Of a stretch of DNA of 64,000 nt, positions 4,580 through 63,420 are shown piece after piece. Origin of the DNA: Cyanidioschyzon merolae (lineage: Eukaryota). The translations under genes were made by a program, and so were the position numbers. Every line of letters starts with the position of its first letter. Position 1 is the stretch's first letter. Location: the NCBI GenBank assembly GCA_000091205.1, contig AP006488.2. The stretch is one strand, 5' to 3'. Under the pieces are notes generated by a model that had not been told where the DNA came from, searched no databases, and worked only from the letters and a program-made list of their open reading frames with translations.

Positions 4580-6260
4580 GTTATTTCGCGCGTATACCGA
4601 CCGAAGATGATGGCAGCTTCGCCAGGTCGCCCTATTGACCAGGGATATGCTCGTTGTGTGTATCGGTTGCGGCTCCGGGAAAACGCTCACATCGTGTGGC
4701 TCTCGCGTGGAATGCGGGCGCTGGCGACTCGAAGCACGATGGTAACCGCCACGTCGAGTAGAGTGCTTTCGAGATGCGATGTTGACGCGACGACGGCGTT
4801 GTTTTAGTTCGAGCGGTACCTGGGATAGGCAGGTTGCCTCTGAACCGCTCGTTCATTCAGCAAAGATGCTGTCGACGCTCACACCGATCTGGTATGACTC
4901 GTTCCGGATGGAGTGGCGGGCATCAACGCTTATGCCGCAGGTGTTTGTCCATAGTCGCGCATACTGTGCAAGTGGACCCTCGTATCGCAAGGAGTCGCCT
5001 CGCCTAGAGGGAGAAGGCGCCTTCCAGTGGCCATTGCGGATACGGCCTTGTTTTGGATTCTCTTGCGCTGTGAGGCTGTGTTCAGGTTTTATTCGAACGC
5101 TTGTGTTCGCGTGTTTCTACTTGAAGCGGTGCTAGCGTGGCGCATCACAACCATCCTTCGATCGCCTAGTCAGAGATCTCTGACCTTTCAGTTTCGTGGT
5201 CGCGCACCAGAAACCTCTCAGCAATTACTTTTACAGGCTCCGAGTGTCAAGTGTTTTGACAGCGATTTGAGCAGGAAATTGGCTCTAACCCGTGTCGCAA
5301 GCGCACAGCATGCGTCTTTGAAAGGGCTACGTTTTCAACAAAAATGGAAATCAAGAGACTGGCAGCGCTGTGCCAGCACGCTTGCCTCGGAACCATGGTG
5401 GAGAATTTCGGTCATTTGCATCGACCAGTCGTGTATAGCGGAGATGCTGGTCACCGCAGTGTCCCTCACTCGGGCTGTACGACCCCTGGGCCGTATGTCA
5501 TGTGAGCACTCGACGAAGAAATCACCTGCGGGACGCTGTAGTACGTTTATAAGCCTGGTTCATGGAAGCACTTGTGTTCCCCGACCGCAACTCAATATCT
5601 GTTTACTGCCAGGGAGCGCAGGTAACCCACGGCAGCGGCCAAACGCATCCACGGCTTCAGCGAGCCGGCTTACGCAGAGGTCCCGCATGTCTTTCGTAAA
5701 CGGGGAAGCCCTCTATGTCGTCTGGAGCCTACCAGAGTACCCAGTTCGATGGGCAGTGCATCAGATCCCCTGAGTGCATGCCATAAACATGGGACGCTTT
5801 GTTTCGATTTCGATGGTTCACAAACAGACGAGCATGCGTATGGACGCATCCACGAGGACAGGGATCCAGTGAGGGTTCAACCTATGTCCCGTTACAGCGG
5901 GGTCGTCTGTGAACGCTGGACGCGCGCTTGCTTCCCACCTGGACAGACTTCACAGGCGTCGACGTGCCACGACCGCACCGGCGCTATAGGCGGTACCACC
6001 GACGATCAGGGCAAGCACTCGATGCACGGTAGAATGTATGAAGCGACTCGTATATCCGAGAAGAGGTATGGGCTATGGGACTCGGTGAATCGAGCGGTGC
6101 TTCACCGCGCGCTGATATCAAGCGCAGAGACAAGGAATGCTAGCCTGTGTGTCTATGATTGTCTAATTAAAGATGGAAATGGAAAGCGACGGATGCTGGT
6201 GCTGGCACACCTGCGTCGCCTCCTACGCCATGTATTTGTAGTGTTCAGTACGACGTTTCG

Positions 6261-7046
6261 ATGTGTGTTCGATCAAATAGCGCGATAGCGGGTAGACGGG
6301 TCTCGCGATGGGTGCTGCTCATAACGACGCTGCTCTTTTTGGTAGTGTCGCAGCCGCCAGACTGGCTTGGGCGGCAGACGCAGCAGCTGCCGGTGTCACG
6401 GGAGCCTGACTGGTCCAGTAGCCTCCGGAGCACGGCAGCGTTGTTACGGGTGTCGTCTTGGCTTCCACGGGTGGCGCTCGCTGAGGCCGCACAGTCGTAC
6501 TACACAGTGCTGGGGGTTTCGCGAGACGCTACCGAGCGAGAAATCAAGCGGGCATACCTCAAACTCGCGAAACGGTACCATCCGGACAAGAATCGCGGTG
6601 ACAAAAAAGCCGAGCGAAAGTTCCGACTCATTGCTCGAGCCTACGAGGTTTTGAGCGATACAGAGAAACGGAGAGTATACGACCAGCTGGGCGAGGAGGG
6701 CCTGCGTCAGCAGGAGCAGGGTGGCAGCCAAACCGGACCCTACCAGGGCCAGTCTGGTCAATTCCAGCAGTTCTTTTTCCCTGGAGGCGGACCTTTTGGA
6801 CACCAACATGGGTCGAACTTTCGCTTCAGCTTTCAAGATAACGGAGGAAGGGCCGGAGGCGCCTTCGATACAGGTTTCCCTTTTGAGGACCTCTTCAACG
6901 AGTTTATGGGTAGTAACCCGGGCGGTTCTCGCCAGCGTCGCACCTTCCAACAGAGACGCCGCCCTGGTGGTTACCAGCGTTGTGAAGAGACAAAAATATG
7001 CTCAAATGGGCGCTGTCAGACGCGAATCACCTGTAGCACGATTTAG
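6261..7046 (+). CDS. Small secretory-pathway DnaJ/Hsp40 (ERdj-like): signal peptide, J domain, Gly/Phe/Gln-rich tail
   Basis: J domain [54 protein letters not shown] with an HPD motif. Hydrophobic N-terminus [17 protein letters not shown]. Real ATG at 6261. A missed downstream exon cannot be excluded. Confidence 0.7.
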
Positions 7047-7899
7047 GCGTGCCGCTGTACAGAGACGCTGCGCAAGAGCATACAAGTTACTCGTTCGTTC
7101 GCATTGTAGCAAGCTTTGGAGGATCCATGGTACTTGCATGGCTTTGTAAGCGCTTCTGTGACACGTTCTTGTTGACGCGACCCCGCACTGCCCATCGAGC
7201 CGGACGCTTTCCGGAAGCCGTGCTGATTGCAAGAGGCCAGCATATGGTACCGCCCGAGCGCTTCAATCCTTAGAGCAAGTGTTTACTCGGCCGTTATCAT
7301 TAGTCATTGCAGGAAAGGTAATCGTCGCAGTAGTCGTTTACATCGATGTCAGAATAAAGCGCAATTGGTTCCCTAGCTCGGACGTACACTCCGTAGTTTG
7401 GGTCGCTTCCCACTGGTATCAACACCTGAGTTGCAGGCTTTTTCTGCGACTGCGTCCTCCCGCTCTCTCGTATCTGCGGCTTCAAATAAGACCGTCTCCC
7501 CTGTACCTCGAGCTCCGTTGTCACTAGTCGGACGGTATTGATGGTAGCGTTCATGGTCCGATTTCGCTGTGTCCGGCTGCTGTCGACGCATTCCACGCGC
7601 AGACGGGTGTTGTTGCGATCCAGACTGCGGCTTGCCATTTTCATCCGCTCTGGACATAGATTCCGTGCTCCATTTTCACAGTAGTGAAACTGGGCTACGG
7701 TCAGGCGCTCCCGCATTTCTTAGACGCATTCTCCTCCGAGGACCATGCTGTGACGTATGAGCTTTTCATTCATCGCTGGGCACATGTCCGTATCGGATAC
7801 AGCAGACTCCACTTGACTCACTCCTCTATTTCCGCGCCTGAGTGCCATAACCCAGGATCACACGCTTGTTCCTTGCGATCACTATGACGAGTATGCTGT

Positions 7900-8530
7900 C
7901 CGTTGCACGCGCACACTGTTTCAGTCTACAGCGTATTTGTGGAACGCGATGCCGTCCATAACGAGACATGTGCCAGAAGGTGAACCCTGCCTGGAGAACA
8001 AGTCGAGAAATTTCGATCGGTCCAGGATCCTTTCGTGCAAAGTGATGAAGCACGCTCCGACAGCAGCAAATCGCTGAGGTGACTGAAAACCGAGTCCGTG
8101 ATCGTCTTCCATAGAAACGCGAGAGACGGGAGCTCCCGCGGGCATACCCCGGCGAGAGGTATCATGCTGCTGTGAAATTCCATTTCGAGCATGGCCACGT
8201 AGAGAAGAGAGTTTGTCTTTCGAACGGAGTCGATTATTTGAAGTGCCAAGTTCGGAAAAATTTCGTCATGAAATTATGAACGCCTACTCAAGGAATGACA
8301 TCGAGTTTTTTCTTCGTCGTCCATCCAGAGGTGCGAATACCTGCGCCCACAAGTTGCCTTGAGACAGAGAGATTGAAAACTTGATGAATGTGCGATTGGA
8401 ACGTGCTACACACGTTACGAAAGAACAAGAATGGACGCTTATACGCATGGACTTGATAGTGATATCGGTTATTTTAGGAACCTTTGTTCGCGGGCGTCGC
8501 GAATCGTCTTCATTCTGGTCGCGTCATGGA
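7900..8530. repeat. Old, decayed copy of repeat family R
   Basis: Alignable by eye to the 3' half and tail of the young copies: gaaccctgcctggagaacaagtcgagaaatttcgatcgg; gagaggtatcatgctgctg; tttcgaacggagtcgattatttgaagtg; gttgccttgagacagagagattgaaaacttgatgaatg. Confidence 0.6.
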
Positions 8531-9389
8531 TTTCAGCGGAAAAGCGTCGAAGAAGCGACGTCGAAAACACGCCCGAGCAACTTGGAAAAACTACGTATGG
8601 ATCCGCAATTTCTCTTTGATGCAATTCGGATATTGAAACTGCAAATGTGAAAAACAATTCGCAAAACAATCGACACGCAGCAACAGAGCAACCACTTCAG
8701 TGTTCCACATTGGTCTTAAACATGAGTGTACTGCCAGAGAGCCCGGCGAGACTCCGAGAACCCGAATTCATAGCCACTCGCGAACAACGTACGGCATCCT
8801 TGTAGCAGAGGTACTGCTTACGGGTCGCGTATCAAAGGTCGCAAACAGAGGCTTTCCTTCACCTCGTCGCCGCCGCGTCCCAGCGAAATTCCACCTGCAT
8901 CGCTCGCGATATTCTAGTTAGAGAGCACCACGCGACCACCAATAATCTTGCTCTTGATTCGAAAAGATTAATGAATGCTATGTGAAATAGATTCCGCGGC
9001 AGTGGCTTCAACAGCGAACGCTTACCAGCTCGTACCTCACTTGCTCAGAGCGCAGTAGCCTTCATGCAACTCAGCGCGCAGCCGGACAAGTTTACCTCTT
9101 TCTTTACTTTCAAGGACAGAAACTGCGTACCTCGCACTTTTCACGTCATCAACAAGCCAATCTCAGCTTGAACTTGAACTTCCAACAGCAGTCATCTGCA
9201 GTCCACAAGACCTCTTTCAACACACACAGCGCCCTTCTGAAGATACCAGCGCTCGATGCGCTGGAGGCATCGGGCACCCGCGCCATCGCGACGATCCTGG
9301 CGTGCTGCTCATCCGTTGGCGCTGCCAGCCCCGAGAGCGTAACCATACGGTTCAGCAGTCCGTTCTGCGCGCCATATCAAGAAGAACGA

Positions 9390-12072: not shown

Positions 12073-12999
12073 CGCTTGACGCTCCGGGTCCCTGGCACTT
12101 ACGGCCTGGGTTCACTCGGAAACCACGAGTTTTTGAAGGCGCAGTCCTGCGCGCTACCGCCTACGTTGAAGCTGGAGGAGCGTTGCGCGTATGGATGTTT
12201 GGTGTCGCCAGACTGGTATCTATCCATACTGGCACACAGTTCGACAGGTGCTCTTCATCGGGTACACAAGCTAAAGTTTGGGTTTCTTCCAATTGTCGCA
12301 AACGCAGGCTATTACGAGCTTATTCTGCAACTGCATCCGTTCGCTTTCTCTTCTTGCTGGATTTACATTCGCCGGTCTCTCCTTCCGTCAAGATGCGATG
12401 TCGGCGGTCGAGGGTTATTGACGGCAACGTACAAGTGCTGATTACGTCGCTCATCGCCGTGGTCAAAGCATCTCATGCACAGACGAAAAGTCGCGATCAA
12501 CGCCTCGCTTGCCATTTCCATTGTCTTGTTCGTGCCCAGCGTTGGTGCGCTCTTCACTGCCGCGACACATGGCGGTGTGTTCAGATGCTGTAGCATATCG
12601 TGCATACCGCTTCAACGAATGGCCGTCCCGTGGCGCCTGAACGCTTGCTTCATCGTTCGGTACATGCTGGTGAAGATTGCTGAAGGCGCTCTACGATACG
12701 CACTTCCGTTTCCGTAACTGGTGGTGTACCCTACACGCACACGGGCTTGATGTGGGCGATGCCCTCGGCGAGTACGGCGTCCGCTGCAAGCGCACGCTCG
12801 TCTATTCGATCGAGGAGTTCTGAAACGCAATATTCTCCATGATAAAACACGCACCGGGAGCAAGTTCCGGACTCGAGAAGACGCCATAAGGCCTCAACCC
12901 GTGTTGGCAGCCTTCGTGCCAAGCGGTAACGCGCTGTCCACTGTAAGCGATCGCAGCGTTGCCTGAGGTCTGAGTTCAAGATTCTTTTCCATGCAAGTG

Positions 13000-13500
13000 G
13001 AACAAAAGGAAGCCTCTTGGTGAACAGCCCGTACGAGATATCATGCTGCTGCTGTTGAATGCAGTTTCATCGATGTCCGCGAAGCGGTTAGATTCTCTCT
13101 TTCGAATGGACTCCATTATTTGACATGAAAAGCCCGGTAAAATTTTGGCAGGTACTTGTGAACAAGCCGACAAGAGACGAGGTCGATTTTCTGTTCCATT
13201 TCAATCCAGTTGGATGCGTTGCTGCGCCAACGAGATGACTTGAAACACAATGTTCTAAAACTTCAAGCACGGGTGATTTGAGCATGCTACGAGTAAGGAC
13301 GGGAAACGAATGGAGGCTTCTGCGAAGGCGATGGATAATGATATCGGTTATTTTATGAACCCTTGTTGGAGGGTGTCGCGAACCATCTTGGTGACGATGG
13401 CGAAACGAATTTCAGCGTGGAGAGTCGACGGATCCACTCCAAAAACATAACCGAGAATACTAAAATTACACACGAATCCGCAAGCACTTGTTCCAGCACC
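13000..13500. repeat. Old, decayed copy of repeat family R (tail portion)
   Basis: ttcgaatggactccattatttgacatgaaaag...cttgaaacacaatgttctaaaacttcaagcacgggtgatttgagcatgct aligns to the tail of copy 2 (29690-29800). Confidence 0.6.
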
Positions 13501-16500
13501 TCGAGCGTCGAGGATGGACATGTGAAAAAATTCGAAAAAAATCGAAACGTTTCAGCCTTATCAACCAGAAGGTGCAGTTGCCAATGATCAGCGGACGATT
13601 GCGCTCCGGACAGTGGCACAATCGACACCTGCACCACGTGGCCAAGTATCCGCATGTCGAAGGTGCGATTCCCAATACGTCTGCCTATGGACACTTCACC
13701 CATACTGGTCTGTGCGAACTCGAGCCCTGAGAGACCCGCACTCTGCCTATCTACATGGTCGCAACAATCGCCAAGAATAGGCTAGCGCCGCTCGTTCCAC
13801 TCAGAGCAGTGAATCCCGGAACATCTGTACCAGCAGGCGGTTTTTTGTCTAACAAAGAGAGTCTCTATGAAGGTTGGAGAATGGTCGCGGAAAGACTTTG
13901 TGTGCGCACTGCTAGCTTTGGAGAAATGGCCTCACTTGTGCAAATCAGCTATTCGTCGGTCAGCTAGTGAGTGATCCATCCCTCTGCTCGTTCATATCCC
14001 GAATGCAGTACACCAAAAACTGAACTTGCCAAACTCTAGGCCAACGACTCTTCCCTCGACAATCTATTCCAGTCCAAATGCTCGCACCGTAATGCCACCA
14101 AAGATGCAATTCCATGTAAACTTTCGGTAACGTTTCCTCGAGCGGAGCTGAAGAGACGCGGATGGATCAAGAAACAGGCACGCCTCAACAGGAGACCGCA
14201 CCATTTCGAACAATACACAACAGATTCTGTATAGAAATGCGAATACTTTTCGTGGAAGCGACGGGCGTTCATCTCGCATGATGACAAATTCATCGATGAC
14301 CAATGCGAGACTTGTATAGACGTTGCCGTAGAGGGGCAAGCCGCTGTTTGTGAAGAAGAGTCAAGCGAGCATTCCGACAACGTCAGTTCTCGCGACGATT
14401 CAATACTGTGGTCGCCCATGAATCGCAACACAGAAAGCAGCGCTCAGCACCTGATCCTCCGTTGAAACACGCCTCGAGTTCCATCTTTTCGTGTCCTTCT
14501 CCTGGGCAATATCTCTCAGTCCATCACTGATGTCGGTCGGGGGGCGGGGGCGCGGTTTGTAGCTGCTCTTCGTGCTAGCACACGCTCGCGGGTTCCATCC
14601 GCTTAAAGACGTCGTATAGGATTTCAAACGCCATTTTGATCTACCGGAAGAACAGACGAGTCGTACGTAACCGTGTTACAGAAGTTCTTCGACAAATCAC
14701 TCTTTGTGTTCACCAGAACCGAATCCATGCATTGATTCTCCGCTCATTGGCAGCTGAGAAGGGAAAGGTGCGCTCCGGTCTGGGAGCGGGCATGCGATGG
14801 CTAAGGCGACGAAAAAGCACTTGAGAAACAGTGCGTACATTCAAAGAGAAGACGAGTTTCAGGCACGTCGAGCGATCAGTGCGTCTGAGTGCCAAGAAAG
14901 AAAACGTATACAGCGTATCATGAAAAAATCCACGCTACCTAGCCGAGTAAGCGAAAAGGCAAAGATGTCGAAGCCGAAAGAGATGCAACCACACGTCAAA
15001 GCAGAGAAATAGCTTCCCTAAAAGATGACGAGTTCCGACGGGAACGGAGCACCTTCCGATCGGAAAGATCATTGTTGGACCGCTGTCAACGCCTCACCAA
15101 TAAATCATATCCATTGGGAGAATCCTTGAAGGCGTCAGGCACACGACGCCATTAGAGATCGCGTAGCTTCTTACGCGCACAAGTCTTGCCTATTTCGTCT
15201 TGTCTTGGTGCACCGCGCCACGCGACGCTTCGGTGGAGTTCCAGACACGGGCGGCAAGCTCTCGGCATTTCTCTGGATTTTTTTCGGATCAGACCTTCGT
15301 GCGAGAACACCACTTATGCTCCGGATAGAAGGCGCAACACGGCCTGTTCATAGGATTCCGGATGTACTCGCACGCTTCCCAGAATACCTTGACACATTAC
15401 CGCGCCACCTCGGCGATCTGAGGATCGACAACGCAGATGCCAGAAAGTACGGAACTACATTCAACATACCAAATTAGGTTCAGTGTCGAGCGCTTCACGA
15501 AACACCTCCCATGCGCATTGTATCCTCACGTCACATACGCGATAAAATACGGATGGATGGACGGGATGCTTAGCGGGTCGATGGAGGAAAATGACGAGCG
15601 ATTGGCGGCAAGAGATCGAGGTGGTAGCGAGTTCGGAACTGATGTGCCAGCGATAGGGAGTATCGCTTCAGGTAATCCAAGCTCGTCGTGTTGCCGTCAG
15701 CCTCGGGTCGGCGGATTTCGTACCGAAAAGGATCGTTGAGACGCAACGCCTACCTTGCTTGCATCTACGGTTCCATGTTTCGCTGAGCAGATCTTCCCAG
15801 AGCAGACCAGAGCAGATTCCATCAGACCGTCGCCTCGAATCCAAGCGCCGTAGCCTCCGAAATCGCCAAGTGGATGTGCTCCCAGCACCTCAGATGGAAG
15901 CCCAGTCGATCACCCGAGACGCTTCTGCTCTGTACTGTATCGCATCTTCAGTGAGCTACAGCTGGTCTGTCTGCGCGCAGCTATTCCGCATTCCACTATA
16001 GAGGCTAAGAGCATTGCAGAGCTCGTTCAAGGCTCCTCGTGTACGGAGAAGGAATGGAACGAATTCTACAGTGCCGATGGAGCTCGCTGGAATACAAATC
16101 CGCATGTACTTGTGAGATCGAGGCCCAAGTCAAGCGATGCGACTCGGTCTCAGCCAAAGAAGACATATCAAGAGAGAAACATCATGGTGGGCCCGGATCC
16201 CCAGGTCTGAGAATATCATGACGGTTGTCGTACCTCTGAATCGAGAGAACGTATCGAGGGATATGCAGGGAATGCAAACGAAGCTACTCAGCTTTTCCCG
16301 GGCTCGATTTCACCCAGGAATGGGCATGATGAATGCGAGAAGGCACACGAAAACTGGAAAGACGGCGTCAGGGACCAGACCCCGGTGCTCTGAGCACACT
16401 GTCCTGCAGACGAGGATGCTTTGTGTGCTGCATTCAGAGAGAACACGAGCGTCCAAATGGCGTATGTCGACGATCTCTGGCAGAAATACCTGCGGACGCA

Positions 16501-18076
16501 CGGGAATGGCCAACGATTTTCGGCGTACAGGGGCAGGACGCGAGTATTCAGCGACTTGTTTCATGAACAGGAAAAGAAATACGACGGATCGTTCGTCTCG
16601 TTGGGTGACGGTACCCTATGGCGCAAGACGTGCTGTGGCGCTCGTGGGCTGCACGCCTGCTCCTCTGACGAGAACGTAGAACGAGTGCAGGAAACGATTC
16701 TGTACGACGCCTGTCGATGAGTTACGGCCAACAGAGAAACGTCACGAGCACGAGTGCCCGTTGAAACAGCCAGAAACGAAGCGCTTGAAACAGAGCACGA
16801 TGGACGAGATGGGGTACGGCATGCCGAGCGGACGTCTGCTTACGAGGCAGTCAGATGCATGAGGCTCGCAATGTTGCGATACAGTCGCCAACAAGGTATG
16901 CAAGCGCTTTCTGTGCCAAGACTTGGACGCCTCAATCAACACCCGAAAAAGTCGAGTGCTTTCGGAGCGTCCTGCGGCTCTGTGTCAAGCGAAAATTCCT
17001 GGTAATCGTTTCGTATTCTTTGTCGGCATTGCGCTGAAATGCTGAAGACTCCGGATTGAAAAAACTCAGTGGCCAGGAGAGATGGCATTAGATTCTCGCC
17101 CGGAGCGAGGCACTGTTGTGGTCGAGCGCATCCATCGAGCGAGGTAGCAGCGTCGTATGTGTATACTGCGAACGTTTTACCTCGGCAGTGATGTCATGAT
17201 CATGGTGTTCCATTATTCGGCGTTACCAAGCATATGCGTCTCTTTACAGAGTCGTGAAATCCAATCCCTTGATCCTACTCCCAGCGGGACTTGCATGCCT
17301 AGTGGTCGGTTCGAAAACAGTCTCCCATGTCTCTTTGCGATCATGTCACAAGGATGAACCAATCTATGTGCAGGCGTTCATTCCGAAAGCAACAGTGTCG
17401 GTCCTTAGACGAATTTTCGAATCCGGTCGCCTCGTCCGATACAGCGCTGCGTATGCGCGACGATATTGATATCAGTGTTTGCATAAGAAAATCATATCAT
17501 TTCCACCACTTCCGGTTCAGGTATAAAACGTCGGTATGAGGAATCTGGTGCCCATCATCGCAAATGGTCGCGTAACGAGTTCCCGCCGACGACCTGAGGC
17601 ACAGTGCACGGGCCATGCTCCATCGGTGTCGCGTATTGCACCAGTTACGAGCACGAGAAAGCACTATCCTTCCATGACATGGTGGCAGTGCGCATGTGCC
17701 CGGGTCTGTTCTGACGCTTTCAGGGTCGCAACAGGAACGCAAGGCCCCGTCCCGTAATCCACCGACCGCAAAGCTGCCTTTGTTCCATAGTGGGAGCCTT
17801 ACAGGATCCAGTGCGTCCTGTCCGTGCCTCGGGGATATCTTGGAGCCGGACGGATCGGCCGTACCCGCAAGCGTCACAAAGCCAGCACGGAAACTGTACG
17901 AGGAATCCCATAGATTCTGCACCAGACCCGACACACTGGCATGAATCCGCTGACAGCATCAGTGTTCCCGAACAGCACAACAACGATCCGTTGGGTATTG
18001 TGTACCTCGACTGCACGGTTCACCTTGCAGCGAGCTCGCGCGTTTGTACCGAGTGTCTATCCGCTCGTCCCGCATC

Positions 18077-19865: not shown

Positions 19866-22377
19866 AGCACGACTGTCACAATGTACTACTTTGAAGTGCT
19901 CCCCAATCCAGCCACTTTAGCCGTGCTATGTGCACTCCCAGGATCCGGGATCGTCTAAAGTGGACCGAATGCCCCTTGACGAAATATCCTGCACCCAAAA
20001 CTCTGCTCTGCGGTGCTGCGCAAATGTCAGCCGCAGAGGCTACGAGCAGGAAACTCGCTCCATCATCGCCGCCGCTGGTACGCAGGATCGACTCAGATTC
20101 GTCGATCAGTTCAACGGTTGCTTTCTGATCGCGGCGGCGGCGGGCGCACGAGCGGTCTACGTGCAACGCTGCGATCAGCGAGATGTGACGATGCGGTGCT
20201 GCAGCGCGTCACATCTGCTGCAGCATGCGCATCACCGGAGGACGCTGGCCTACGGAAACGTTTTGTCCATGAAAAAGATCTGCTGCTGCATCGGATTGCA
20301 GCAGCTATTGTCTTTCACCAGGATTCTGTTCCACATCCAGTAGCGTGGCATCAAATGCTTTTCCGCGGTTCATAGCAGATATGTTCGAAGTGTGTTTATT
20401 TGGAGAAACAAAAGATCCATGGCACAGGAATAGACGTGGATGTCGGGCATCCTGGAGCGCTGTCATCGATGATCGCCAGAATGAAACGGAAAAACCCTCT
20501 TTTCGCCGACTATGGAGCGAAGGAGAGGAAGAGCAACAAGGGGAGATGCACGAGAAGCGGTGCTTGCACAGCGGGACGGTGACTAAACTGTAGAGGCACA
20601 GAGCGCACGAGTTCAAGGAATCCTTGCATTGGTGCGTTCAACAGTGGCAAAAGACGCATGGAGTTCATCAACCGAGACTGTAACGCCGCTGTGAATATCA
20701 TACAATGAGTGGCGTTGTAGACGAGACCCGAGGAGCTAGCGAAATCTAATTTTATTCGGCAAACTCTCAGGCTCGAGAGGTGCCTTGATAAACTGAAACC
20801 GAAAGCAGGCGGTCGGTCGAAAAAGTTGGGAGACGCCTGCGTATGGGTATTCATTTACCCACCATGGTTGTGGGATATTTTTCGTTCTATCAACGATGTC
20901 TTTCTCGTCGATGGACCATGGGCAAGCGTGTTTAGCTCATCTGGAGGTTCGCGGTTGCACAGGCCCGACCGGAGCCCGAGTTAGGGGGCCTCTTCTCGCT
21001 GGCGGACACGTCTACATAGCACCCGACGAGCAACGTCTAGCGGATGAGAGTCGTTGCCTTTTGGTAGCGCACAGCGAGCGATAAGCAGAGGAAGGTGCCA
21101 GTTTTACGCATGGACCTGAAACGGTGCTCGCGCAATGCTCGGAAAAGCCTCACAGAATATCGGCAAGTGTTCGTTCGTTCATTCAGCGTTTGGAATTGAT
21201 GAGGCTCTGGATACCTGTGTCTCCCAGTGGTTTCCAGAGAGTCGGGGCATGTGTTGTGTTCTTTCCCAGCCGTGTCTTCATCCTCGCGGATTCTGCCGAG
21301 GGGCGCGCTTCACGTCGGAGCGCGGTAGCTTCCGCGCCATCCCGGGCAACACGGAATTCGTTCTGCTGCTGTGGTGCATTCGCCGCTGGAGTGTCGACCT
21401 GTTCGGCACTGTGTTTCTTTCGTGCCGCTCTGTCTCGAAACGCTGTGTCCTGTGCGAGTCGGCAGCCTCCATCGACGGAATGTTGAGGTCGACTCTCGAG
21501 CGACGCTTCACGCACGGTCGTGCACTTGAAAAAACACTTCATTAACGTTCGGCGAAGCATCATGCTCGCATGCAACTCGTGAATAACATTTTGCCAACGA
21601 GAAATATCTCAGCGGTTTGCCGAAAGTATTTCTCATTTCGAAACGCGGTGGAATTGAGTGCTGCAGCCAGCCATATTGAAGCGCTGTAATGGGAACGCGC
21701 TTTCAGAGGCACGTGCACGGGCAAGAGAGCCTCTTCGGTGCTCTACTTCTGGTCGAGCACCAAGAGCACGACACTTGAGCGATGTGACGGCGGACGGATG
21801 ACACCCGTTGCATCCGGCCACGGTAACGCTACTGGATAAAAGTAGTGGCATGATGTAGACAGAATATGGAATTACAGCATACCCACCGCCATAGTGAGAT
21901 GCGGGACGCTTAGTACGGAAAAGTTACGCATGTACTACTTCCTGTGCCACAAGCAGACTTTCTGTCAAGGTACGAAACGCTGCGTACCTACATCTTTCTC
22001 CTGGACGCGGCGAACGAGGTATCTGCAGATGCGAGCGCACGCACTTCCATTGCAGCCAGCACATTATCGTCCATATTTGCGCGATCTATCCAAAATGAAG
22101 GCAATCTTCGCTGTCGCGTGTCTGTACTGAGAGGCAAAGAGCAAAGCCCAATTCCTAGGCGAGCACGCTTCTGGTATTTATGACGGCGACGGCAATCGTT
22201 TTGCAGAGATACCGACTTACGCGGGGGTATATCCGACGCCGCGGGGAATGGTTTAGACGAAATCGCGTGTACAGCAGAAACGTATCGATATCCTGGACCA
22301 CAGGCATTTGGGTGTGACAGCTGCTGCTGCTGCCGAGTCCAAAACGCCGCTATGTTGCAGTGAGGCTCCCAGCCACC

Positions 22378-44845: not shown

Positions 44846-45094
44846 CTAGCCGTAGAGCGTGTACCACAAGTTGGATCGCGTCAGCTCCTCGGGCCTCGTC
44901 TTCAGCACCGATCCTCGTATGATATTGACGGCAGCATTGAAATTCCGTTTCACGAGCTCATTGCGTGTATTGCCTCTGGCTGAACTTGCTAATGCAGGGA
45001 CTGCTAAATCAAGCAATCCTCTCTGCCGCTGCAGTCTCGATATCATCGCGTCAGACATGAAAACCTCTCCTCGCCTATCGCCCGCCTTCTTCAT
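44846..45094 (-). pseudogene. TnpB/Fanzor-like RuvC-III remnant, copy B (catalytic D replaced by N). The homologous flank extends roughly 44840-45300.
   Basis: ELVKRNFNAAVNIIRGSVLKTRPEELTRSNL aligns to copy A, GFVNRDFNASINIRSCAVLKTRPSKLTQSNF. Flanking DNA at 45170-45260 aligns to 36120-36200. Confidence 0.4.
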
Positions 45095-45795
45095 CTCCGT
45101 TACGCGCTCTTATTCGCTCGATGATCGGTGAGACAAGGATTTTTCCGTTTTTTTGCCGGCAGCCGGCGACACCGAGCCTCCAAGATCCTCGACTTCCATG
45201 TCCATAAATTTCCCTTGGATTTCTTATTTTTGAAAACTTACGCACTTCGAAAGCATCTGCCACGAACCAGGAAAAATCATCTGATGACACACACCGAGAG
45301 GTGGAACGCAACTGAGGTGTAAAACGATAACAACCCAATGCGACGTTGCAGATGCCTAGTCGCAGCGGTGACACGGGCGCCCGCGCATTCCTCCCCAAGT
45401 CCTGGCCAGGTGTGTTGCTCGCCGAGACAGTGCGAAGCAGCTGCGTAAAGGTTCAACGGAGACCGCACGAGTTCCTCGGAGGACACGAACCAAACCCATA
45501 ACACGCTGAGTAAGCGTGCTAGTACATCGCAGAGCTTGATCGCCATCGAGCAAAGCAGCAAACTTTGCGCGCCCTGAGCAAGTCGATAACCGTAACGCAG
45601 CCCCTCCAGGTGGAAAGACGCGCTCGTTCGGGCGTCAGAGAAAACCAACCATAGTCTATCGTAGCGCTCCGTCGTTCAATTAGATGTTTTGTTACGGAAA
45701 GTTGTTATGCATTCACTTGTAACCTGCGACATTCGGCTGCAGTAACCCGTCCTTGCGAGATAGTTTGCTACCCGAAGCCCGTCCCGAGGTGTACG

Positions 45796-46941: not shown

Positions 46942-49900
46942 CTGCTGTGTGCCACATGGCGTCGAGAACGATGGGTATGGAAAGCAACGCATGGCAGCGT
47001 TCTTGTCAGCTGAAGATGACGTCGCGGGTCACGTTTCTCCAGTCGTAAAGGGCAACCGCTGGATCCAGCGCCTGCCTCACATTCTATGATGAAAGCAGCT
47101 GAAGCGAATGTGGCGTTTCATATGCACTCCCTGGGATCTGATTCGCTTTCTCGATGCACTCATGTTGCAGCTGGAATATGATCCCATGCTTCCAACAGAA
47201 TACCGTTCTCCTCAATGGAGCCGCTTCGCTCCAGAGGTGTGCATTCATTCAGTTCGGCCCAAAATGGTGTGTTCAGCACGACGCCTTCTTGCAGGGACCG
47301 GTGCAGCGCTCTCGTACGAGCATTTAGTTCTGGTTCGGAACACGGTACAGCCAGCTCGATGCGAAACCTGAACGAGTGCATTCAGCCTGCGTTAAAGCAA
47401 GCGCATGCGAATACATATGGACTAGTAATGCGTTAAATGGAGGAGCACTCGCTCTCTTGGACCACCGTGCTGCTTTGAAGAAACAAGACAGGTTCTGTGG
47501 CATCCTTTTCTGACGCATGCACAACGATATTGCCCACAAGTTGCAGCAACCGAAGGTGTATCGGCACCGAAATAGATGGACCCCAGAAGCGATTGGTAAC
47601 GCCCGTGCCAATCGAACCCCGGCGAGACTGAGGCTCACGCAATGGATCTTTGTAGGCATGCTTAGTGATACAGGTCAATGGAGCACCATGACTGACTGGA
47701 AAATGGCAAACAAAACCGTTCGCTTTTTGTGTATGTGGCGCCCAAAATACGCTGGACCAGGGGCCCGTACCATACCAGCGAAATACTCGGGGCGAGAATC
47801 CAATGCCCCCTGTCCTGGGCTGTGATTTGTTCTCATCGAAAGTCTCTCCACGAGCCGACGCTCTCTGAATGGTACGGCAACGCCGTTCTGTCTCCGTGCA
47901 GCGACCGCACCGGCGCTATAGGCGCCATTGCGGATGCTCTCGGCAGGCATTTGGCACACAATAGGACGTTTAAAATGACCAGTATATCCGAGAAGAAGTA
48001 TAGGTAATGTAACTTGGAGGTAGGGGGTTTGATGGATACTTCACCGCGTACTGAAAAAAAATAAGAAAAGAAAAAGCACACAATCGGCGAACGCTGGCCT
48101 AACTTAAAGTTTTGTCAAGTAAGAAAACGAAACTCTCCAGCGTTTGAGCTCAATCTCCGCAGTGCATACAACACACTGCGCACGAACAAACGACTCACGG
48201 GAAATAGCTGGACGCTCCGTATGTATGAGACACTTTCAGATATTGATCGGTGCGTTGAAGCGCGGGTGTGGAGAACGTGCTTCCGCGCATTGCGGCTGAT
48301 GGAATCACATCATCGTGATGCGCTCTCTTGCGACTGCCTCGCCATTTGACGTTCGTTCAGCTTACCGTTCACCTTTTCGTGCGCCAGTTATTGTTTCACC
48401 TTCTTCTTCTTTACATGTTTCAGCGTTCATGCCCGCTCGTGATACGCATATGTGGTCCCGAACGCATCGATGGAAATCGTGCAACATCGATTCCCGCACT
48501 TGTTCTGGGTGCTCTTGTGGAAAGAGCAATCGTGCATCCCCGGCGAGTTACTGAACATCCAGCACCATACGCTGCCGCTCAACGAAGCGAAACCTAGGCC
48601 ATTTTGGTTTCCATTTCATAGCACAGTCTGACGAATGGAAGCTTCTTGCTTCAGTACAGCAGTCAATGTTGGCGAGCCTGGCGCGTTCACATAAACCACT
48701 GCCAAGTATCGTCGGCATGGGGCACTTTCGGTTTATGTGATCCACGAACGAAGCCTGCAATGCCTCCCCATTTGCTCGAGATGGTGCATCGGGGGTCGAA
48801 GAAGGTCCTGGCGCCGTCGTTCCACATGTTGGCACGCCTCCTGGCGTCAAAGAAGCCCGCCTCCAGATAATACCGAGTTCTGGAAAAGTTGAGCAGCTTC
48901 ATTAGCTCTCCATGCAGATCTTGGGTTCCGTACTCATGGTTAAGAGGTACGCCCAGAAACATGACGACCTTGAACCCGGAATCCAAAACGTCTACCAAAA
49001 CTTTTTCTCCTATATCCTGAACTGTTGACATTGAGATTTATTGCTCGTCTTGGGCATGGGGTTCACAATCTGAAAGCAGACAGATATTTCAAGGGTCGCC
49101 ACTGTCTATTTTCACCTTTTCCCGCTTGCTCCCCCAAACCTGGAAACCCTGAAGGATCTCCATCCCGCTATCCCCACAAACTGTTTCGAATGCCTCTGAG
49201 TTGTAAGCAGAGATCACCCGTTGCTCACCTAGTTGGGTATAAAGTTCAGTACAGATTTGTCTACGATGTTGAGATCTACCCTAGTCTGACGTACACGGAG
49301 CATGTTGAGTGATAGCTCGAGGAGACGACGGGCACTCTAATGCAGGCAGGGAGTCTGCATTGCCCCGGAGGACTCTGTTCACTTGCCCAAATCGCAGTGC
49401 AGATAGGAACACTGTTTCAACCATCCTTTGAATATGACCTCATTTGGCCCGAGGCCGAGACCAACACCATGCCCTCGGACGATTTGAAGCGATCGCCACG
49501 CTCGTTGCGGCATCTCTTCCAAACTCGCTACCTCTTCGATCTCCTGCGCCAGCAGCTCGTCACCCGCCTCCACTGACACTCGGAGACTACTCTCCATGAC
49601 TCCCATTTTTCTTCGCCAGTAAGGAGATCGGAAAACGCCCACAGAGTGCGCTCCACGCAGCGCTCGAGCTAGAACCGCATTTGGGTTTTCTAGTCAGTTT
49701 GATACTGTTTGACACCTGCTTTGTGGATGTACCACTCGCAGACTGGGCACAGCAATGCGTCAACAAGTTCGAGGAAGCGCGTGCGCGAAGCTCTGATCCG
49801 ACGATCAGACCATTTTTGCATCCTCTGTCCAGAGCGTCAGCCGCTGCATGAGGGTATTATGGAAGGATTCCAGTGGAATGTGCACAGCTGGCTGCCCTGC

Positions 49901-51860
49901 GTCCGGAACACCCACAAATGTTTGTTTCATGATGTGCATCAAAGCGAGAGAAGCTCGACGAGCCTCCCTCGGGCCGGGAGTTCGACTACTCCGTATGGCG
50001 TCCTGCCTCGCGCTCTATGGAAGATTTCATCAATGAATACATTGCATGTGGGAGACGATGACACCCGTCTCGGATAGTTCTTTCTGCTCCGATTGTTTAA
50101 CTTGCTGTTCCATCTCGTCCTCTTTTGAGCTGGACTTTGCTCTTCTTAGTCTCGTAGGTTCTTCTCCTTCTCATCGTTAGCCTTGCCCTGTACGTGGTAG
50201 CGTAGCACGCATGTGGTTGCTATAATCTGTAACCATTGTTCTTGCGGACTCTGGAGTTCTGGGTAGACACTGATGCTGAAAAAAAGCCTTTTCTCTCTAT
50301 GAATCTACTAGTTTATATCCCTTTTCATAGTGTTATCCGTTGCGAGTACGCCCACCGGCATATGCGCTCGTTTCTGCTCCTTCTCCTCGCACGAGAAGCG
50401 GAGCAGCGCAGCAATCTAGATGTGGTGATCGTCGAGAACAACTTGTATATACATTGCGGTTTCACGGATGCACACGACTTTAATGCTGTTCAGTGAGCGT
50501 CGAAATGGCGCTCGACAACTGGAAAGGCACCATCGACAGGATTGATCCAGGGGCACGGGCTGGCGCGCAGAGACGCTCAGAATCAGCCTCAGCTGCGCAC
50601 ACGATGGCCTATTGAGCGTGGCAGAACTGGGCGTTGTTGAAGATCAGGACAGTTATATGTTAGGAGCATTCGCCACGAACATTTCTTCGACCAAGGATGG
50701 GGTGTTTAAGTATCCTTTATTTTTCCGATATGTAGATAGCCATACGACAGCGTCGCCGCTATGGCTAAGGTTGTCGTCATTCTCGCCTGTCACGTCTTTC
50801 CGAACAGCGGCTTGCCTCACATTGAAGGACCGCCGAGTTCTACTATCCATCCCGAGTGAAGCCATATCGAGTGAGACGAACAGCCGCTTCTGCTTTCACA
50901 AGCGTTCGCATCTCAGAGCGTCATTGAAAGCATTTTGTTCAACGCGCGCTTGCCTTCTAGATAAGCGTGCAATGTACTCGCCCACTTTGTACACCGTTCG
51001 TGTCAACGGTAACAAATCTTGGAATCCTGCGACTTCTTGAGATATTCTTCTTCGAGAGCATATGAAATGCAATGGATTGATGCGTGGATAGTCGTACTAG
51101 TAGCGTAAAACAAGTTCTTCCCTGGGTACACGTCGTTCAGGAGAGGAACTACGCCAAGCTTGGCGCTTATCCACCTGCTGACCCTGGAGCAACTGATTTG
51201 TTCGAGTAGGACCTTTTACCCATGTTCTCGGTGACGGCATCATGTTTTTCTTCGACTATTCTCTATTGTAAAAAGGCAGACTCCTTTTGTTGTGCTACTG
51301 ACAGAAGAACAAACAAAAAAGCGTGCTGCTGCATCTGCTCCAGCGTGCAGTGCTCTGAATCGAACGCTGCTTTGGCGATACCTCTGAACCTCGTCATTCT
51401 GGACACAATACATGCAACGCGGCGGCATCGACAGTGCCCGAGCGTTTCATGCACAGAACTAGACAATCCAGCACGGATTGTTGCCCTAGGCAACGTCGAG
51501 CACATATGTCCATTATAAAACCAATATGTTCAGCATCAGGAGCGTGCTCCTAGCGGCGCCTCATTTCGCCATCGATGGTGGCGGAGACGCTCGCACGGGC
51601 AATGACGTGCGCGCTCACGTCGCAAAGCCAGCGCATCGCGCTGCGTGAGCGTTCAAAACGTGAAACTACTCCGGTGTGTGAACTGACTCGTGTGCAGGGC
51701 GTGATCCCACTTCGTCCTTGTTCATCAGTTGGTTGCAGTGACATCTTTGTGTTTGTGGCGAAGAATTTGGCAGATCTGCTCGGTCTCTGAACTTGAAACC
51801 TTGTACTGCAGGAACGCACCGAAGACACCGCTTGGTGACGCATTGTGCTGGTGGTTTTTC

Positions 51861-55329: not shown

Positions 55330-55500
55330 GGATTCATGGATAAATAAATCCACAGTCTATGTATCCATTGACACGCCCATATATTTCAATGATCTATATA
55401 AAATATATCCACAGTCTATGCATCCATTGAACAAATCCATACAGAACATTGCTCTATTCGAAATAAATCCTCAGTCTATGGATTCGTCAACGTCTCCATG
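55330..55500. promoter_or_regulatory. AT-rich island with three ~60-bp tandem repeats (aaataaatccacagtctatgtatccattga) and short catgga/tccatg palindromes, 0.2-0.4 kb upstream of the CHO2-like ATG
   Basis: Read directly. Units at ~55343, ~55401 and ~55462. Contains tatataaaatata. Strongly AT-biased relative to the window. Confidence 0.45.
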
Positions 55501-55544
55501 CATCGCATCGATTCATGGGAGCCAGTGAAACTGGACGTGCGCGC

Positions 55545-55660: not shown

Positions 55661-55718
55661 TTCCAAGTGCTCGTGCCGTGTCGGCCGGCTCGTGGTCATC
55701 ATCTTGCACATCTTCTGT

Positions 55719-57968: not shown

Positions 57969-59041
57969 AAGGATTGAAATCCGGTTCGAAGCTTCCAACA
58001 GGACCTGCAGGAAGCGACGATTGCTGGAAAGAAAGCACTTTTTGGCACAAGGCACCTCCGCATGTATGCTTCCTTGCGTTGGTATCTGACTCCCAGTCCA
58101 AACCATGTTGTACACGACAATCATCGCTCCGCATTGACGGAGCTTGAAGTTAGGCGGAAAACGTGTTCAATATATGAAACAAATGCTCGAAAACGGCCTG
58201 ATTCGGGACAGACTATGTTCCGAAACGCTCCGAAAATGCATTGATGATGACCTGATATTCGCCGCTGTGGACCAGTACAAGAGAGCGCCATCGCTATGCT
58301 CCGGGGTCGCGTGTCTGCGCAAGGCATCTCATCGGGGACCTCCACGGTGACACTCGTTCGATCGATGCTTCGGGTGCAGCAATCGGATCACTTGGTGATC
58401 ATTCGTGGTATCAGAAGCGATGTTGTGGAGACGCTTTCGAGCTTCGCGTCCACAGCGACTCAAGTCCGGACCAGTGAACGTGGAACGATAACGCGTTCGG
58501 CACGCGTCCACGGAAACGCGGCCCCCGAGGACATTGGTCTCTGGCGAACGCTGCACGGGTCTGTTCGAGCACACCGTTCTGATGCCGCTGACGCCGATGA
58601 ACCGCCCGTTGCGGAAAGACGCAAGGCCCCCGGCAGCGATCTAATCGGTACGGATGCATCTGTGTCCAGCGCTAAGGTGTTGTCTGAGAGGCTTTGCCAC
58701 GAACTGTACACGATTCGCTGTTACTGAACAGTGCGCGCCTTGGCTCGCCACGTCTATGCTGCCCGTTCCGCTGGAAACCCAGTTGCGTCAAAAAGCTTTC
58801 AATGTGGGGATGTCCAAGGAAACGCTCGGTATCGCGGCTGCCTAGGACGAACATCTGGAAAGACTTTCGAACCAGGGCTGATGTATCTGAGTTTGCGCAA
58901 GTTAGAATCTAATTGCTACGTTTCGTTTCGCATAGACAAGACTCCGTTCTCGGACGTGGACTCGGCGATTTCAAACGTCAGCTACCAAGTAAATATCCTG
59001 ATTAGGATAGCGCTTTTTCCGCTGTGCCATACACCCGAGTC

Positions 59042-59877
59042 AGCATAGAACGGAAAAGGTTTTCCGATTCGTACGCACCTACCAAAGTTTAGGTTGTATC
59101 CGCGCTCATCAACACCAGAATTTGCGGGCTTTTTCTGCGACAGCTTCCTTTGCCGCTCGCTTATCTCCAGTTTAAAGCAAGGTAGTCTTATCTGTCGCCT
59201 AAGGCTCCAGTGTCAGCAGTCGGAGGATATACCGATGCCGCCAATAACGCCTAGCTTTCGTTGCTTCCCGCAGTTGTGAACGCGTTGCATGTGTAGACGG
59301 TAGCTGCGATCTAGACACTTTGCTCGCCGCTATCCTATTCGCCTTTCGGGGAAACCTCGGTGCGCTCCGCAAAGCGATTACACGTGCCTGTGGTCGGTGT
59401 TGCTCACGAGTCCACAGCATGTTCTCCATCGAGCGCCGTACCATGGTGCATCGACGCTTGCTTCATTACTCGGTCCGTGCGCTTGACTGGTGAAGAAGGC
59501 TCTCTGCGGTGCTTGCCTCCTCGACAGCGTCCAGCGCGGTACCCGGACGGTCGTGGACTTGTTCTTGGCGATACCTCCCGCGCGTACGCGTTCCAGTGCA
59601 TGGAAAAGGGCACGCGTTTCCGTCCAATGGATAGCCTGTTGCACGCAATATGAACCCTGCTGAAACCATTACCCAAAGACAAGTCCAGGTAATAGAACGA
59701 ATCGGGGGAAATTGTCGCGTGTACGCTCCTGTAGTGCGAAGCGGTTGCGTATTGCCCGCTGTAAACGAATCGCTGTGGTGACGGAGGCTCAAGACCCTTT
59801 ACCACACAAATCATTGAACGTGGAGTCTCTGGGAGCATATTCCATGAGTGGTAGCATGCTGCTGACGAATGCAGTTT
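59042..59877 (+). repeat. Young dispersed repeat, copy 3, ~1.1 kb downstream of the CHO2-like stop. It continues as a more diverged tail to ~60300.
   Basis: Near-identical to copies 1 and 2 up to ~59877, then diverges. The downstream sequence carries the older family motifs (ttcgaa.gga.tcgat.atttga, gagttgccttgaaat...gatcgaaaacttga). Confidence 0.85.
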
Positions 59878-60695
59878 TGTCGACGCCCGCAACGAAGGCA
59901 GAAATCGTCATTCGAACGTGATCGATTATTCGAAAGGACAAGGTCAGCGAACTTTCGGCATGAGCTCATGAACAAGCTTTCAAAGGACGACCTCGTCAAG
60001 TATTCTGCCTCGTTTTTCCAGCGGTGCCAAAATGACGCCCGACGAGTTGCCTTGAAATCCAGAGATCGAAAACTTGAAGAACGCATGCTTGCATTGTTCT
60101 ACTCGATGGCGAACGCGAAAAATGGATGCAGGAACGTATGCATCGGATCGTGATAGAGAATACTTTACGAATTCTTGTTCGAAGGCGTCGCGAATGATCT
60201 TGCTTCCGGTTAGGTATAGGTTTTGAACGACCAAGCGCCCAACGACGCACTTGGCGAATACGACCAAAGTCCGAAAACTACGTATGAATCGAAAGGTCCA
60301 TTTTGCTGCACTTTGAATCTAGAAGCTGTTCCCATGAGAAACCACTCGATATGCAGGGATCGAGCGAGCATCTCAACGTTCCATGGTACTCCAACAGATC
60401 CAAGCACGCTTGAGCCCAGCGGCCATAAGCAGCACCAGACCGAGAGCAGTGTGCTCTGCCCGCGCAACGATCCAAAAATGTACAGTTTACAGAACCCTGT
60501 CTCGGAAATGCGTCCATCAAGCGAACCTCACGACATTCAACACCTGTGCAACCGCCAACGTTCGCTCGTCCATGAAATATACACGTATCATTCGTTCGAC
60601 TCGGATGTAGTTTGCATCACTTGGGAGCCGCTGTCTGGTTGGCGCTACCGTCCGATTGTCTGCGCCAACGAGGACTAACCTGGTCGTTCGATTAC

Positions 60696-62003: not shown

Positions 62004-63019
62004 GACTTTGAACTAAAAAACAATGAGAAAGCGTTGATCGTAGAAAACACACAGACGCGAAACCTCCGCTCCAGCGAAATAACTGTCGCGAATATATACC
62101 CAAAATCCTGGTACGTTTATCTGCTGGCGCTGGTGCTGCTGGTGCTTGTGCTGCCAACGGATTTTGGCGCTGCTGAATGCACGCGCGCCAAGGCGCCTCG
62201 CCCACGCGCAGATCTGAACGCTGCGGTTGAAATGCCCGGCGCAGCAGCAGCGCAGATTCGAGCATTGCGCGGGAAAGCTGCAGAGCGCGCGCGCGCGCGC
62301 AAGCATCGTACGGTGCACCCGTATACAGCGACGCAATGGACAGCGTTGTTGAATCCAGGTGCGTACATGATATCGTTTGGGTTTCATCCTATTATCGTGA
62401 ACGAGAGGTTTGAAGGCCTCCTTGTGGGAGCTTCCTGTTTCCGGTTTCATATCTGCTGCTGTCATTCCGCCAGTCTCTGCTTTACTACTAGTTCCGTTAT
62501 CAGCTGTTGAAAAAACGCGGTTACCGCAGCATCATATCGTCCTGATTTTGCTACTTCCGGTTGTTGTTTATGCATCTCATGCCGAGACGGTAGTTAGGAT
62601 CTAGATTCGGTTGCAGTTCGCGTCCTGTATGAGAACAGCCTCGGTGGAATCAATGCAGCGGCGATTCTTGACAGTGGTTAAATGTTCCTGGGTAGGCGGC
62701 GCACATCCTCCATCGAGCGCTGCAGTCCAGCGCCCGAACGCGTGCTTCATCGCTCGGGTTGCGTCCTGGACGGGAATGGAAGGCCCGGGTCGATGCCCTC
62801 CTATGATTCCGCGTATGGTGCCGTACGCTCTGGGTAGGGACTTCATTTTCAGGGTGCCCTCGGCGAGTAATTTTTCAGCTGCACTCGCAAGCACATAATA
62901 TCCCATCCGATGCGAAATTTTTTGAAGGCGATGTTGTTTATGATGAAACCTGAACCCCAAATGAAAATCTAGCCTGGAGATCAGATCGAGAAACGTCGTT
63001 TCGTCGACGCTTCATTACT

Positions 63020-63420
63020 GTCGAGTGGTCTTGCACGCTCCATTGAGCGCGATCACAGCAAGAAAAACGTCCGAGTCCGATTCCTTTCGCCATCCTCAAA
63101 CGAGAGACCGGAGCCTCTGAAAGCATATGCTGTGAGAGGCATCAAGCCGCTGCGGGTGCCGTTTCTTAGATACACCACGAAGAGAGGAGAATATATCTTT
63201 CGGACGGAATCGATGATTTGACGTGACATGGTCTGTGAATTGCGGCATGGGCGTGTGAGCAAGTCGCAAACGGACGACGTCAAGAGCTTGTCGTCAACGA
63301 TCCAGCGACGCGAGTTGCGAGGCGCACTATTCACCTCGATATAGAGAGATCGAAAACTTGAAGTATGCATGATTCGGGCATTCTTCACCAAAGAATAGGA
63401 GACAAGTGGATGTTTTTACC
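63020..63420. repeat. Old, decayed copy of repeat family R
   Basis: ctttcggacggaatcgatgatttgacgtgacatgg ... gatatagagagatcgaaaacttgaagtatgcatg. Confidence 0.5.

Follow-up and report, generated by a model that had tools for sequence, protein, structure and literature searches.

Transposons in which a Fanzor1 gene comes after, and points the same way as, a gene for an IS630/Tc1/mariner transposase are known from Pythium ultimum (PUl-1) and from the Phaeocystis globosa virus (PGv-1) (PMC3627910). For Cyanidioschyzon merolae the published survey lists a single Fanzor family (Bao & Jurka 2013, PMC3627910), and describes CMe-1A as a 3169-bp Fanzor1 element of about 150 copies, without terminal repeats and of unknown class; white spot syndrome virus is also listed there with a Fanzor1. 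A 253-copy element of C. merolae with an average length of 3.2 kb and a truncated open reading frame (ORF) weakly similar to WSV486 of that virus has also been reported (Nozaki et al. 2007, PMC1955436), and we infer that this element and CMe-1A (TE-N2_CMe) are one and the same. The P-MITE database, built with MITE-finding programs, holds no MITEs (miniature transposable elements with inverted repeats) for C. merolae (PMC3964958), and the repeat classes of Ensembl that Rudenko & Korotkov (2024) quote do not include Tc1/mariner; in the published repeat accounts we found no description of a mariner-type or second Fanzor-associated family in this genome. Here we analyze a stretch of 64,000 nucleotides from C. 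merolae contig AP006488.2 (the window), which holds an abundant interspersed repeat that we call family A. Family A probably represents the dead copies of a class II (cut-and-paste) transposon of the IS630/Tc1/mariner type, more precisely of a deletion derivative with a Fanzor1 tail that was mobilized in trans and has since decayed, with its seemingly young copies having been overwritten in part.

Self-comparison of the window displays three near-identical stretches together with weaker repeats, and alignment resolves family A into seven units of about 1.38 kb that are co-linear on the plus strand as aligned, all full length and all intergenic, amounting to 9.6 kb or 15% of the window. Giving each copy the strand of its ancestral transposase-to-Fanzor reading direction, all lie on the minus strand: copy 1 at 7339-8730 (delimited by nhmmer and by its ends, and the best preserved, with 77% identity to the consensus), copy 2 at ~12219-13601 (nhmmer and profile; 3' end uncertain by ~10 nt), copy 3 at 24209-25592, copy 4 at 28694-30057, copy 5 at 42897-44258 (nhmmer and profile), copy 6 at 59030-60404 and copy 7 at 62314-63696 (nhmmer and profile). 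They are spaced 3.3-30 kb apart with genes in between, and their pairwise identity of 54-63% follows a star-like pattern. That the copies are homologous, as had been supposed when they were first noticed, is borne out by single-copy nhmmer searches, which connect even the divergent ones with E = 1e-59 to 1e-98. The original prediction of at least nine copies covering ~10% of the window was thus right about the homology, but the family has seven copies here and occupies more of the window than was thought; the segments at 7900-8530, 13000-13500, 43440-43800, 60030-60300 and 63020-63420 do belong to it, yet are only the more visible parts of ~1.38-kb copies. A profile of the seven copies recovered no fragments and no further copies from the window, even at E<=10. 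A degenerate 26-nt pattern of the family, with five matches in the window against none expected, was also used to scan metagenome contigs; this returned 45 loci, of which 34 contain family A. Contigs from hot-spring metagenomes and from Logan reach 99% identity to the window, and after removal of the window's own loci ~10 further distinct copies remained in the hot-spring contigs; the metagenome copies that are not cut by a locus edge measure 1340-1410 nt.

Individual copies look non-coding: tblastn between single copies gives equal translated similarity in all six frames, and there is no period-3 signal in the column conservation. A reading of the family as never having been coding, based on these two tests, was dropped once a 15-copy consensus opened long frames, in the light of which the tests show only neutral divergence. 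The majority consensus of 15-17 independent copies yields an element of 1378 bp (a consensus of seven copies, in which the three near-identical tracts predominated, was not informative), and on its minus strand it opens a frame of 184+76 amino acids and another of 336 amino acids, which together reach from ~80 nt within one terminal repeat up to ~30 nt short of the other. The first ~236 codons are recognized by the NCBIfam IS630 profile NF033545 (E=6.1e-18, positions 20-237 of 299), scoring 65 bits, under the 100-bit naming cut-off because the transposase remnant is truncated, and by Pfam DDE_3 (E=3e-9; 37.3 bits against a gathering cut-off of 28.6), with weak matches to HTH_Tnp_Tc3_2 and HTH_33. 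This part contains the motifs VAIDETAF...GYAPRGS and FIMDNIAFHKS, the latter with the second catalytic Asp, and it can be aligned to the mariner transposase of PUl-1 over the DE and DN motifs (E=1e-5). Of the catalytic residues the first two, both Asp, are present, and the third, acidic one is absent, the match stopping just past the second Asp; hence family A counts as a non-autonomous derivative.

The last ~170 codons, in a different frame, match PF07282 (Cas12f1-like_TNB; E=4e-8, with 33.6 bits where the cut-off is 26.3) and NCBIfam guided_TnpB (E=1.5e-4, covering only the last ~60 profile positions), and align with the C-terminus of CMe-1 (E=4e-4). With the motifs VIVGYGTGRG, DIREHLTTAKCHRC and NRDLNAAINIL, this Fanzor part carries the RuvC-II Glu, the zinc ribbon and the RuvC-III motif, the last being NRDLNAAINIL itself. 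The C-terminal signature described for Fanzor and TnpB proteins, [TS][TS]-x-x-C4 zinc finger-x(5,50)-RD (Bao & Jurka 2013, PMC3627910), is present in the consensus as ...EHLTTAKCHRCEG...FRLCMKC...RNRDLNAAINIL. The RuvC-I aspartate and the N-terminal half of the Fanzor protein are absent. In copy 1 the transposase remnant lies at ~8646-7940 and the Fanzor remnant at ~7900-7396, both on the minus strand, and tblastn with the reconstructed protein aligns its residues 3-416 to 8640-7396 (E=8e-68); the corresponding E-values are 1e-47 for copy 2, 1e-39 for copy 5 and 9e-29 for copy 7. The earlier statement that no transposase or other coding signature is visible therefore describes single copies but fails for the family, whose consensus also matches known transposable elements at the level of the superfamily. 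Neutral decay has wiped the coding signal from single copies, and a consensus of ~15 of them recovers it.

All copies that span the junction region align across the transposase-Fanzor junction. In 13 of these 14 copies the MDN and GYG anchors stand 107-115 nt apart, the fourteenth, partial at a locus edge, having them 84 nt apart; in half of the 14 the spacing is 113 nt, which sets the two halves out of frame in the founder, so that the founder would already have been truncated and non-autonomous. At both ends of the element, column conservation in an alignment of 13 copies with their flanks jumps sharply from ~0.3 outside to ~0.55-0.65 inside. The 5' end of the consensus, TACACCCATGTCAGAATAGAACGGAACA, and the reverse complement of its 3' end, TACACCCGTGTCAGATTAAAATGGAACA, form terminal inverted repeats of ~28 nt, TACACCC(A/G)TGTCAGA... 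(ends TACACCCRTGTCAGA), that match at 24 of 28 positions; among 200,000 random pairs none reached this figure, the maximum being 18. The inverted repeats for which the original prediction suggested searching the consensus do therefore exist, and its term MITE-like is apt for a family that is non-autonomous, interspersed, now non-coding and bounded by such repeats. The type of transposase and the terminal repeats both fit a place for family A in the IS630/Tc1/mariner superfamily. The reconstructed founder has a TA dinucleotide at each end, and TA is found next to CAC... at 8 of the 13 5' ends as well as at several 3' ends. The best-preserved terminal repeat in the window is that of copy 6 (59030-59050); a search with the terminal-repeat motif, allowing <=3 mismatches, matched only two ends because single copies are too decayed. 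The heptamer TACACCC of the Fanzor-proximal end recurs inverted (GGGTGTA) ~35 nt inside it, giving a 7-bp stem (consensus nt 1-48, for instance plus-strand window positions 59030-59080). It could be a second transposase-binding site or the relic of a guide-RNA scaffold; the fold of this terminal hairpin is no more stable than shuffled sequence (z=-0.1).

Family A copies are 69-77% identical to the consensus, with Kimura two-parameter (K2P) distances of 0.28-0.40 and a transition to transversion ratio (ts/tv) of ~1, in keeping with a single old burst and neutral decay thereafter. In Cyanidiococcus yangmingshanensis the syntenic region shares the gene order of the window (PEMT, DXS, a 408-aa gene, a 198-aa gene, inositol dehydrogenase, LSM, adaptin, Hsp70) and contains no match to family A or to CMe-1A. 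Its intergenic intervals are correspondingly short: 736 nt against 2242 nt in the window between Hsp70 and adaptin, 1209 against 3633 nt between the 187-aa and the 381-aa gene, and 671 against 4788 nt between the 381-aa gene and DXS. Given that these differences approximate element lengths, the insertions are either peculiar to the Cyanidioschyzon lineage or have been lost from the sister genus, and the description of the family as lineage-specific agrees with this picture.

Against an old burst one might set copies 3, 4 and 6, which differ by only 1.4-2.1% from 24219, 28704 and 59040 onward, and could be taken for recent transpositions of a young subfamily that is still active, the more so since the three share their 5' boundary and since a 162-aa ORF (24583-25071, 29068-29556 and 59404-59892, all on the minus strand) is intact in all of them and in 17 metagenome variants. 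We regard this as improbable. The high identity ends inside the element, after ~945 nt between copies 3 and 4 (24219-25163 and 28704-29648) and after ~852 nt with copy 6 (59040 to ~59891), and the remaining ~450 nt drop abruptly to ~55% identity, as in any other pair. The tract moreover begins ~10 nt inside the terminal repeat, where the outermost bases of the three copies differ, and it departs from the family consensus as much as the old copies do, which indicates that already decayed sequence was copied. The division of the family into young and decayed copies of mixed ages is accordingly misleading. The seemingly young copies are old insertions of which 0.85-0.95 kb was recently overwritten from one copy, most likely by ectopic gene conversion; more speculatively, the tracts could reflect break-induced copying that is still at work on dead copies, for example the repair of cuts made by a resident Fanzor or transposase from another copy. 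The 162-aa ORF has no Pfam match, its database relatives are only the same loci in metagenomes, and its synonymous to non-synonymous differences (5:3, 5:11 and 5:8) betray no clear constraint; it was rejected as a gene on the last two grounds and most likely arose by chance, with part of it in the old Fanzor frame. Metagenome contig L003 (JGI24721J26819_10022238) joins the flank of copy 3 to the flank of copy 4 via the shared tract; together with contigs that end inside the tract, it shows that the near-identical tracts break or mis-join short-read assemblies.

The founder could also have been an autonomous element encoding one functional fusion protein of ~415 amino acids, with an IS630 N-terminus and a Fanzor C-terminus; the reconstructed frames take up the entire element, a length of 1.38 kb is that of an autonomous mariner or IS630 element, and some copies align to the concatenated protein as a single tblastn segment. 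This is nonetheless quite improbable, in that the halves are out of frame in the majority, the transposase match ends before the third catalytic residue, RuvC-I is absent, and the intact Fanzor relatives considered below have 551-712 amino acids. To the idea that the copies are solo long terminal repeats (LTRs) of an LTR retrotransposon we give almost no credence, even though RepeatModeler labels 12.7% of the C. merolae genome 'LTR' (1930 pieces, 2.09 Mb; Cho et al. 2023, PMC9812998), close to the density extrapolated from the window, the copies are all full length with sharp ends, and a 3.5-kb repeat abuts copy 2. The termini are inverted repeats, (TA)CAC...GTG(TA), and not direct TG...CA, and remnants of a DDE transposase and of TnpB lie inside; on these two counts the solo-LTR idea was rejected. 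In addition, the adjacent 3.5-kb repeat is a CMe-1-type Fanzor element without reverse transcriptase, a reverse-transcriptase signal was detected neither within the copies nor next to them, and the C. merolae genome is described as having no LTR retrotransposons (Nozaki et al. 2007, PMC1955436). A non-coding unit maintained by selection, be it a gene for a long non-coding RNA (lncRNA) or a regulatory or structural module of short interspersed nuclear element (SINE)/MITE-like or satellite-like character, would account for the conserved length with few long indels, the single strand of all seven copies, the 98% identity of a 0.9-kb tract in three of them and the transcription reported for interspersed repeats of C. 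merolae (Nozaki et al. 2007, PMC1955436). It is highly improbable as well: decay is uniform with no conserved blocks, the terminal hairpin does not exceed shuffled stability, the unit is absent from the syntenic Cyanidiococcus intergenic regions, and the consensus is clearly transposon-derived. A SINE has a Pol III-type head derived from tRNA, 7SL or 5S RNA and a simple-repeat or A-rich tail. ARAGORN and Rfam scans of family A gave no tRNA or RNA-family match, and terminal inverted repeats are present, so the SINE label is not supported; neither is satellite-like, because TRF found no tandem array of the unit and the copies are dispersed among genes.

The preferred reading, that of a dead, trans-mobilized deletion derivative, would have the following history. 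A larger two-gene mariner+Fanzor1 transposon of the PUl-1/PGv-1 type would have lost its interior by deletion, giving rise to the founder; this, without a working transposase or nuclease, would have been mobilized in trans by a full-length relative recognizing the same ends, and would have inserted whole at TA sites in the intergenic DNA of the Cyanidioschyzon lineage, where its copies then presumably decayed to their present identity with the founder. Several points weigh against this account. A parent element with both genes and the same ends was not found, and an active IS630-type transposase has not been shown in the C. merolae genome. A target-site duplication is unproven, since the conserved TA is inseparable from the terminal repeat without an empty site, and the repeats are visible in the consensus only, the arms within single copies matching at just 9-12 of 28 positions. 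One stop interrupts the consensus in frame, how the two frames relate at the junction depends on a majority of 7 of 14, and gene conversion between sequences of ~55-60% identity is hard to explain mechanistically. The seven window copies share one orientation (two-sided p ~0.016) even as the neighboring genes lie on both strands; this may be chance or local history, and both relative orientations occur in other loci (L009, L029). Finally, family A may already be named in Repbase or Dfam.

A database search with the reconstructed protein returned chance ORFs of other decayed copies and four Fanzor-like proteins of 551-712 amino acids (P0152, P0153, P0156 and P0157) that are 42-49% identical to the Fanzor part, the similarity including QRALARAAD...PVI(I/V)GYGTGRGNGGG. 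Upstream of the segment kept in family A these intact relatives carry DPGRVNLY, and they have a weak nucleotide similarity to family A (nhmmer E=7e-12). Fanzor-like genes lie at 6001-8139 on L051, 6001-7833 on L052 and 5569-7224 on L056; directly upstream of the gene on L051, at 5524-5958, there is a second, CMe-1-like Fanzor C-terminal fragment. The contigs of P0152, P0153 and P0157 hold an Rpb2 homolog, a Peptidase_S74 protein of at least 2625 amino acids, an RNA ligase, a UvrD helicase, ATG8 and many orphan ORFs. Compared with Pol II RPB2, their Rpb2 reaches only 485 bits, little above its score for archaeal Rpo2, a divergence expected of a giant-virus gene rather than a nuclear one, and from this gene content the contigs appear to be viral, namely giant-virus-like and from hot springs. 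A search of IMG/VR for relatives of the intact Fanzor proteins found none, and the flanks fetched for these Fanzor genes showed neither an IS630-type transposase nor ends like those of family A. Because the closest intact Fanzor genes occur on giant-virus-like contigs from the same kind of environment, one may entertain an ancient invasion in which a giant virus of hot-spring red algae brought in the mariner+Fanzor1 transposon and a crippled derivative of it expanded to hundreds or more copies; we hold this possible but unlikely. If true, this expansion contributed to the enlarged intergenic space of C. merolae as compared to Cyanidiococcus.

A tiled self-search detected three more repeat sets in the window: a 3.5-3.7 kb pair, a 0.5-0.8 kb trio and a ~200-nt pair. 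We searched the window by nhmmer and blastn with the CMe-1A consensus from the supplementary file of Bao & Jurka (2013), which matches all three sets and no copy of family A. The large pair are old, near-complete copies of CMe-1A: one of ~3.5 kb on the plus strand at 13787-17288 (CMe-1A 1072-3016 on 15089-17017), which begins 186 nt downstream of family A copy 2, and one of ~3.7 kb on the minus strand at 47618-51376 (CMe-1A 967-3000 on 50142-48184). The latter includes a 5'-end piece at 47843-48117 (minus strand; CMe-1A 4-261 on 48117-47843), the copy at 47847-48024 being 81% identical to the CMe-1A consensus, and a further 5'-end fragment lies on the minus strand at 5957-6168 (nhmmer, CMe-1A 36-215 on 6131-5959, E=2e-13). 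The motif cgaccgcaccggcgctataggcg occurs in the window only at 5970 and 47902, in these two 5'-end segments. The segments 5940-6120 and 47830-48010, originally grouped with the main repeat family, thus had to be removed from it, two of the nine listed segments belonging to another, published family. The trio comprises an internally deleted derivative on the plus strand at 20147-20960, in which CMe-1A ~777-1019 is joined to ~2834-3087, and its sister derivatives at 35672-36202 and 44670-45471, both on the minus strand; across the trio the common internal deletion brings CMe-1A ~777-1062 together with ~2834-3087.

The surrounding DNA is nuclear, with ~54% GC, intron-poor, and bears ordinary genes on both strands. 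These encode a K+ transporter, a DHHC palmitoyltransferase, DnaJ, a proteasome AAA-ATPase, a methyltransferase, an ATP-grasp protein, an Hsp70-like protein, adaptin, inositol dehydrogenase (38884-40188, minus strand; 432 of 434 residues identical to BAM79464 of C. merolae 10D), DXP synthase and PEMT. The window also has two short tandem duplications, at 31929-32054 and 55342-55480: one, with two copies of a 63-nt unit, is within the adaptin ORF, and the other, with 2.3 copies of a 60-nt unit, lies upstream of the gene for PEMT. Three overlapping plus-strand ORFs in different frames lie at 5027-5773, 5749-6288 and 6261-7046; since the middle one contains the CMe-1A 5' fragment and a domain (DnaJ) is found in the last only, the two upstream ORFs are probably spurious.

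Family A (15%) and CMe-1A-derived sequence (~15%) together bring the repeats to ~30% of the window, which upholds the impression of unusual density in the original prediction and is in line with the 25.9% published for C. merolae 10D, against 3.2% in Cyanidiococcus (Cho et al. 2023, PMC9812998, Supplementary Dataset 4). The significance of these results lies in the repeats of C. merolae, which make up about a quarter of the genome and are poorly classified, mostly as 'LTR' or 'unclassified' in published tables. C. merolae serves as a model 'minimal' eukaryote. With family A, one abundant family among them can now probably be identified as a mariner/IS630-type deletion derivative with a Fanzor tail, which would furnish a concrete mechanism behind some of the repeat expansion that sets Cyanidioschyzon apart from its sister genus, and would add a second Fanzor-associated lineage to this genome, tied to Fanzor genes on giant-virus-like contigs. 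As all copies are dead, no direct functional or biotechnological consequence follows.

In comparison with described systems, family A resembles PUl-1 and PGv-1, sharing with them the order and common direction of the transposase and Fanzor1 genes, as well as the form of the ends, which in these two are TA-flanked terminal repeats of 24-29 nt (PMC3627910) and in family A are ~28 nt long with TA beside them. It differs from them in that PUl-1 and PGv-1 are 3.6-4.4 kb long with intact genes and 1-8 copies, whereas family A is 1.38 kb long, exists in many copies that are all decayed, and has kept of its transposase only the front and of its Fanzor gene only the tail; there is no detectable nucleotide similarity between them. 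With CMe-1A it shares the genome, the intergenic habitat and Fanzor1-derived sequence, as seen from the corresponding motifs LVVAYGAGR and NRDFNAAINI in CMe-1A, and VIVGYGTGR and NRDLNAAINI in family A. Yet CMe-1A is a 3169-bp unclassified element without terminal repeats, over the common tail its protein shares only ~23% identity with that of family A, with no nucleotide match, and its copies are reported to be ~80% identical to their consensus, as against 69-77% in family A. The Fanzor1-like proteins of the giant-virus-like contigs are full length (551-712 amino acids), whereas in family A only the C-terminal remnant survives. Like Stowaway-type MITEs, family A is non-autonomous, bounded by terminal inverted repeats, probably TA-flanked, and present in high copy number in gene-rich DNA. 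MITEs, however, are usually <800 bp and without a recognizable coding remnant, whereas family A, at 1.38 kb, consists almost entirely of the remnants of genes.

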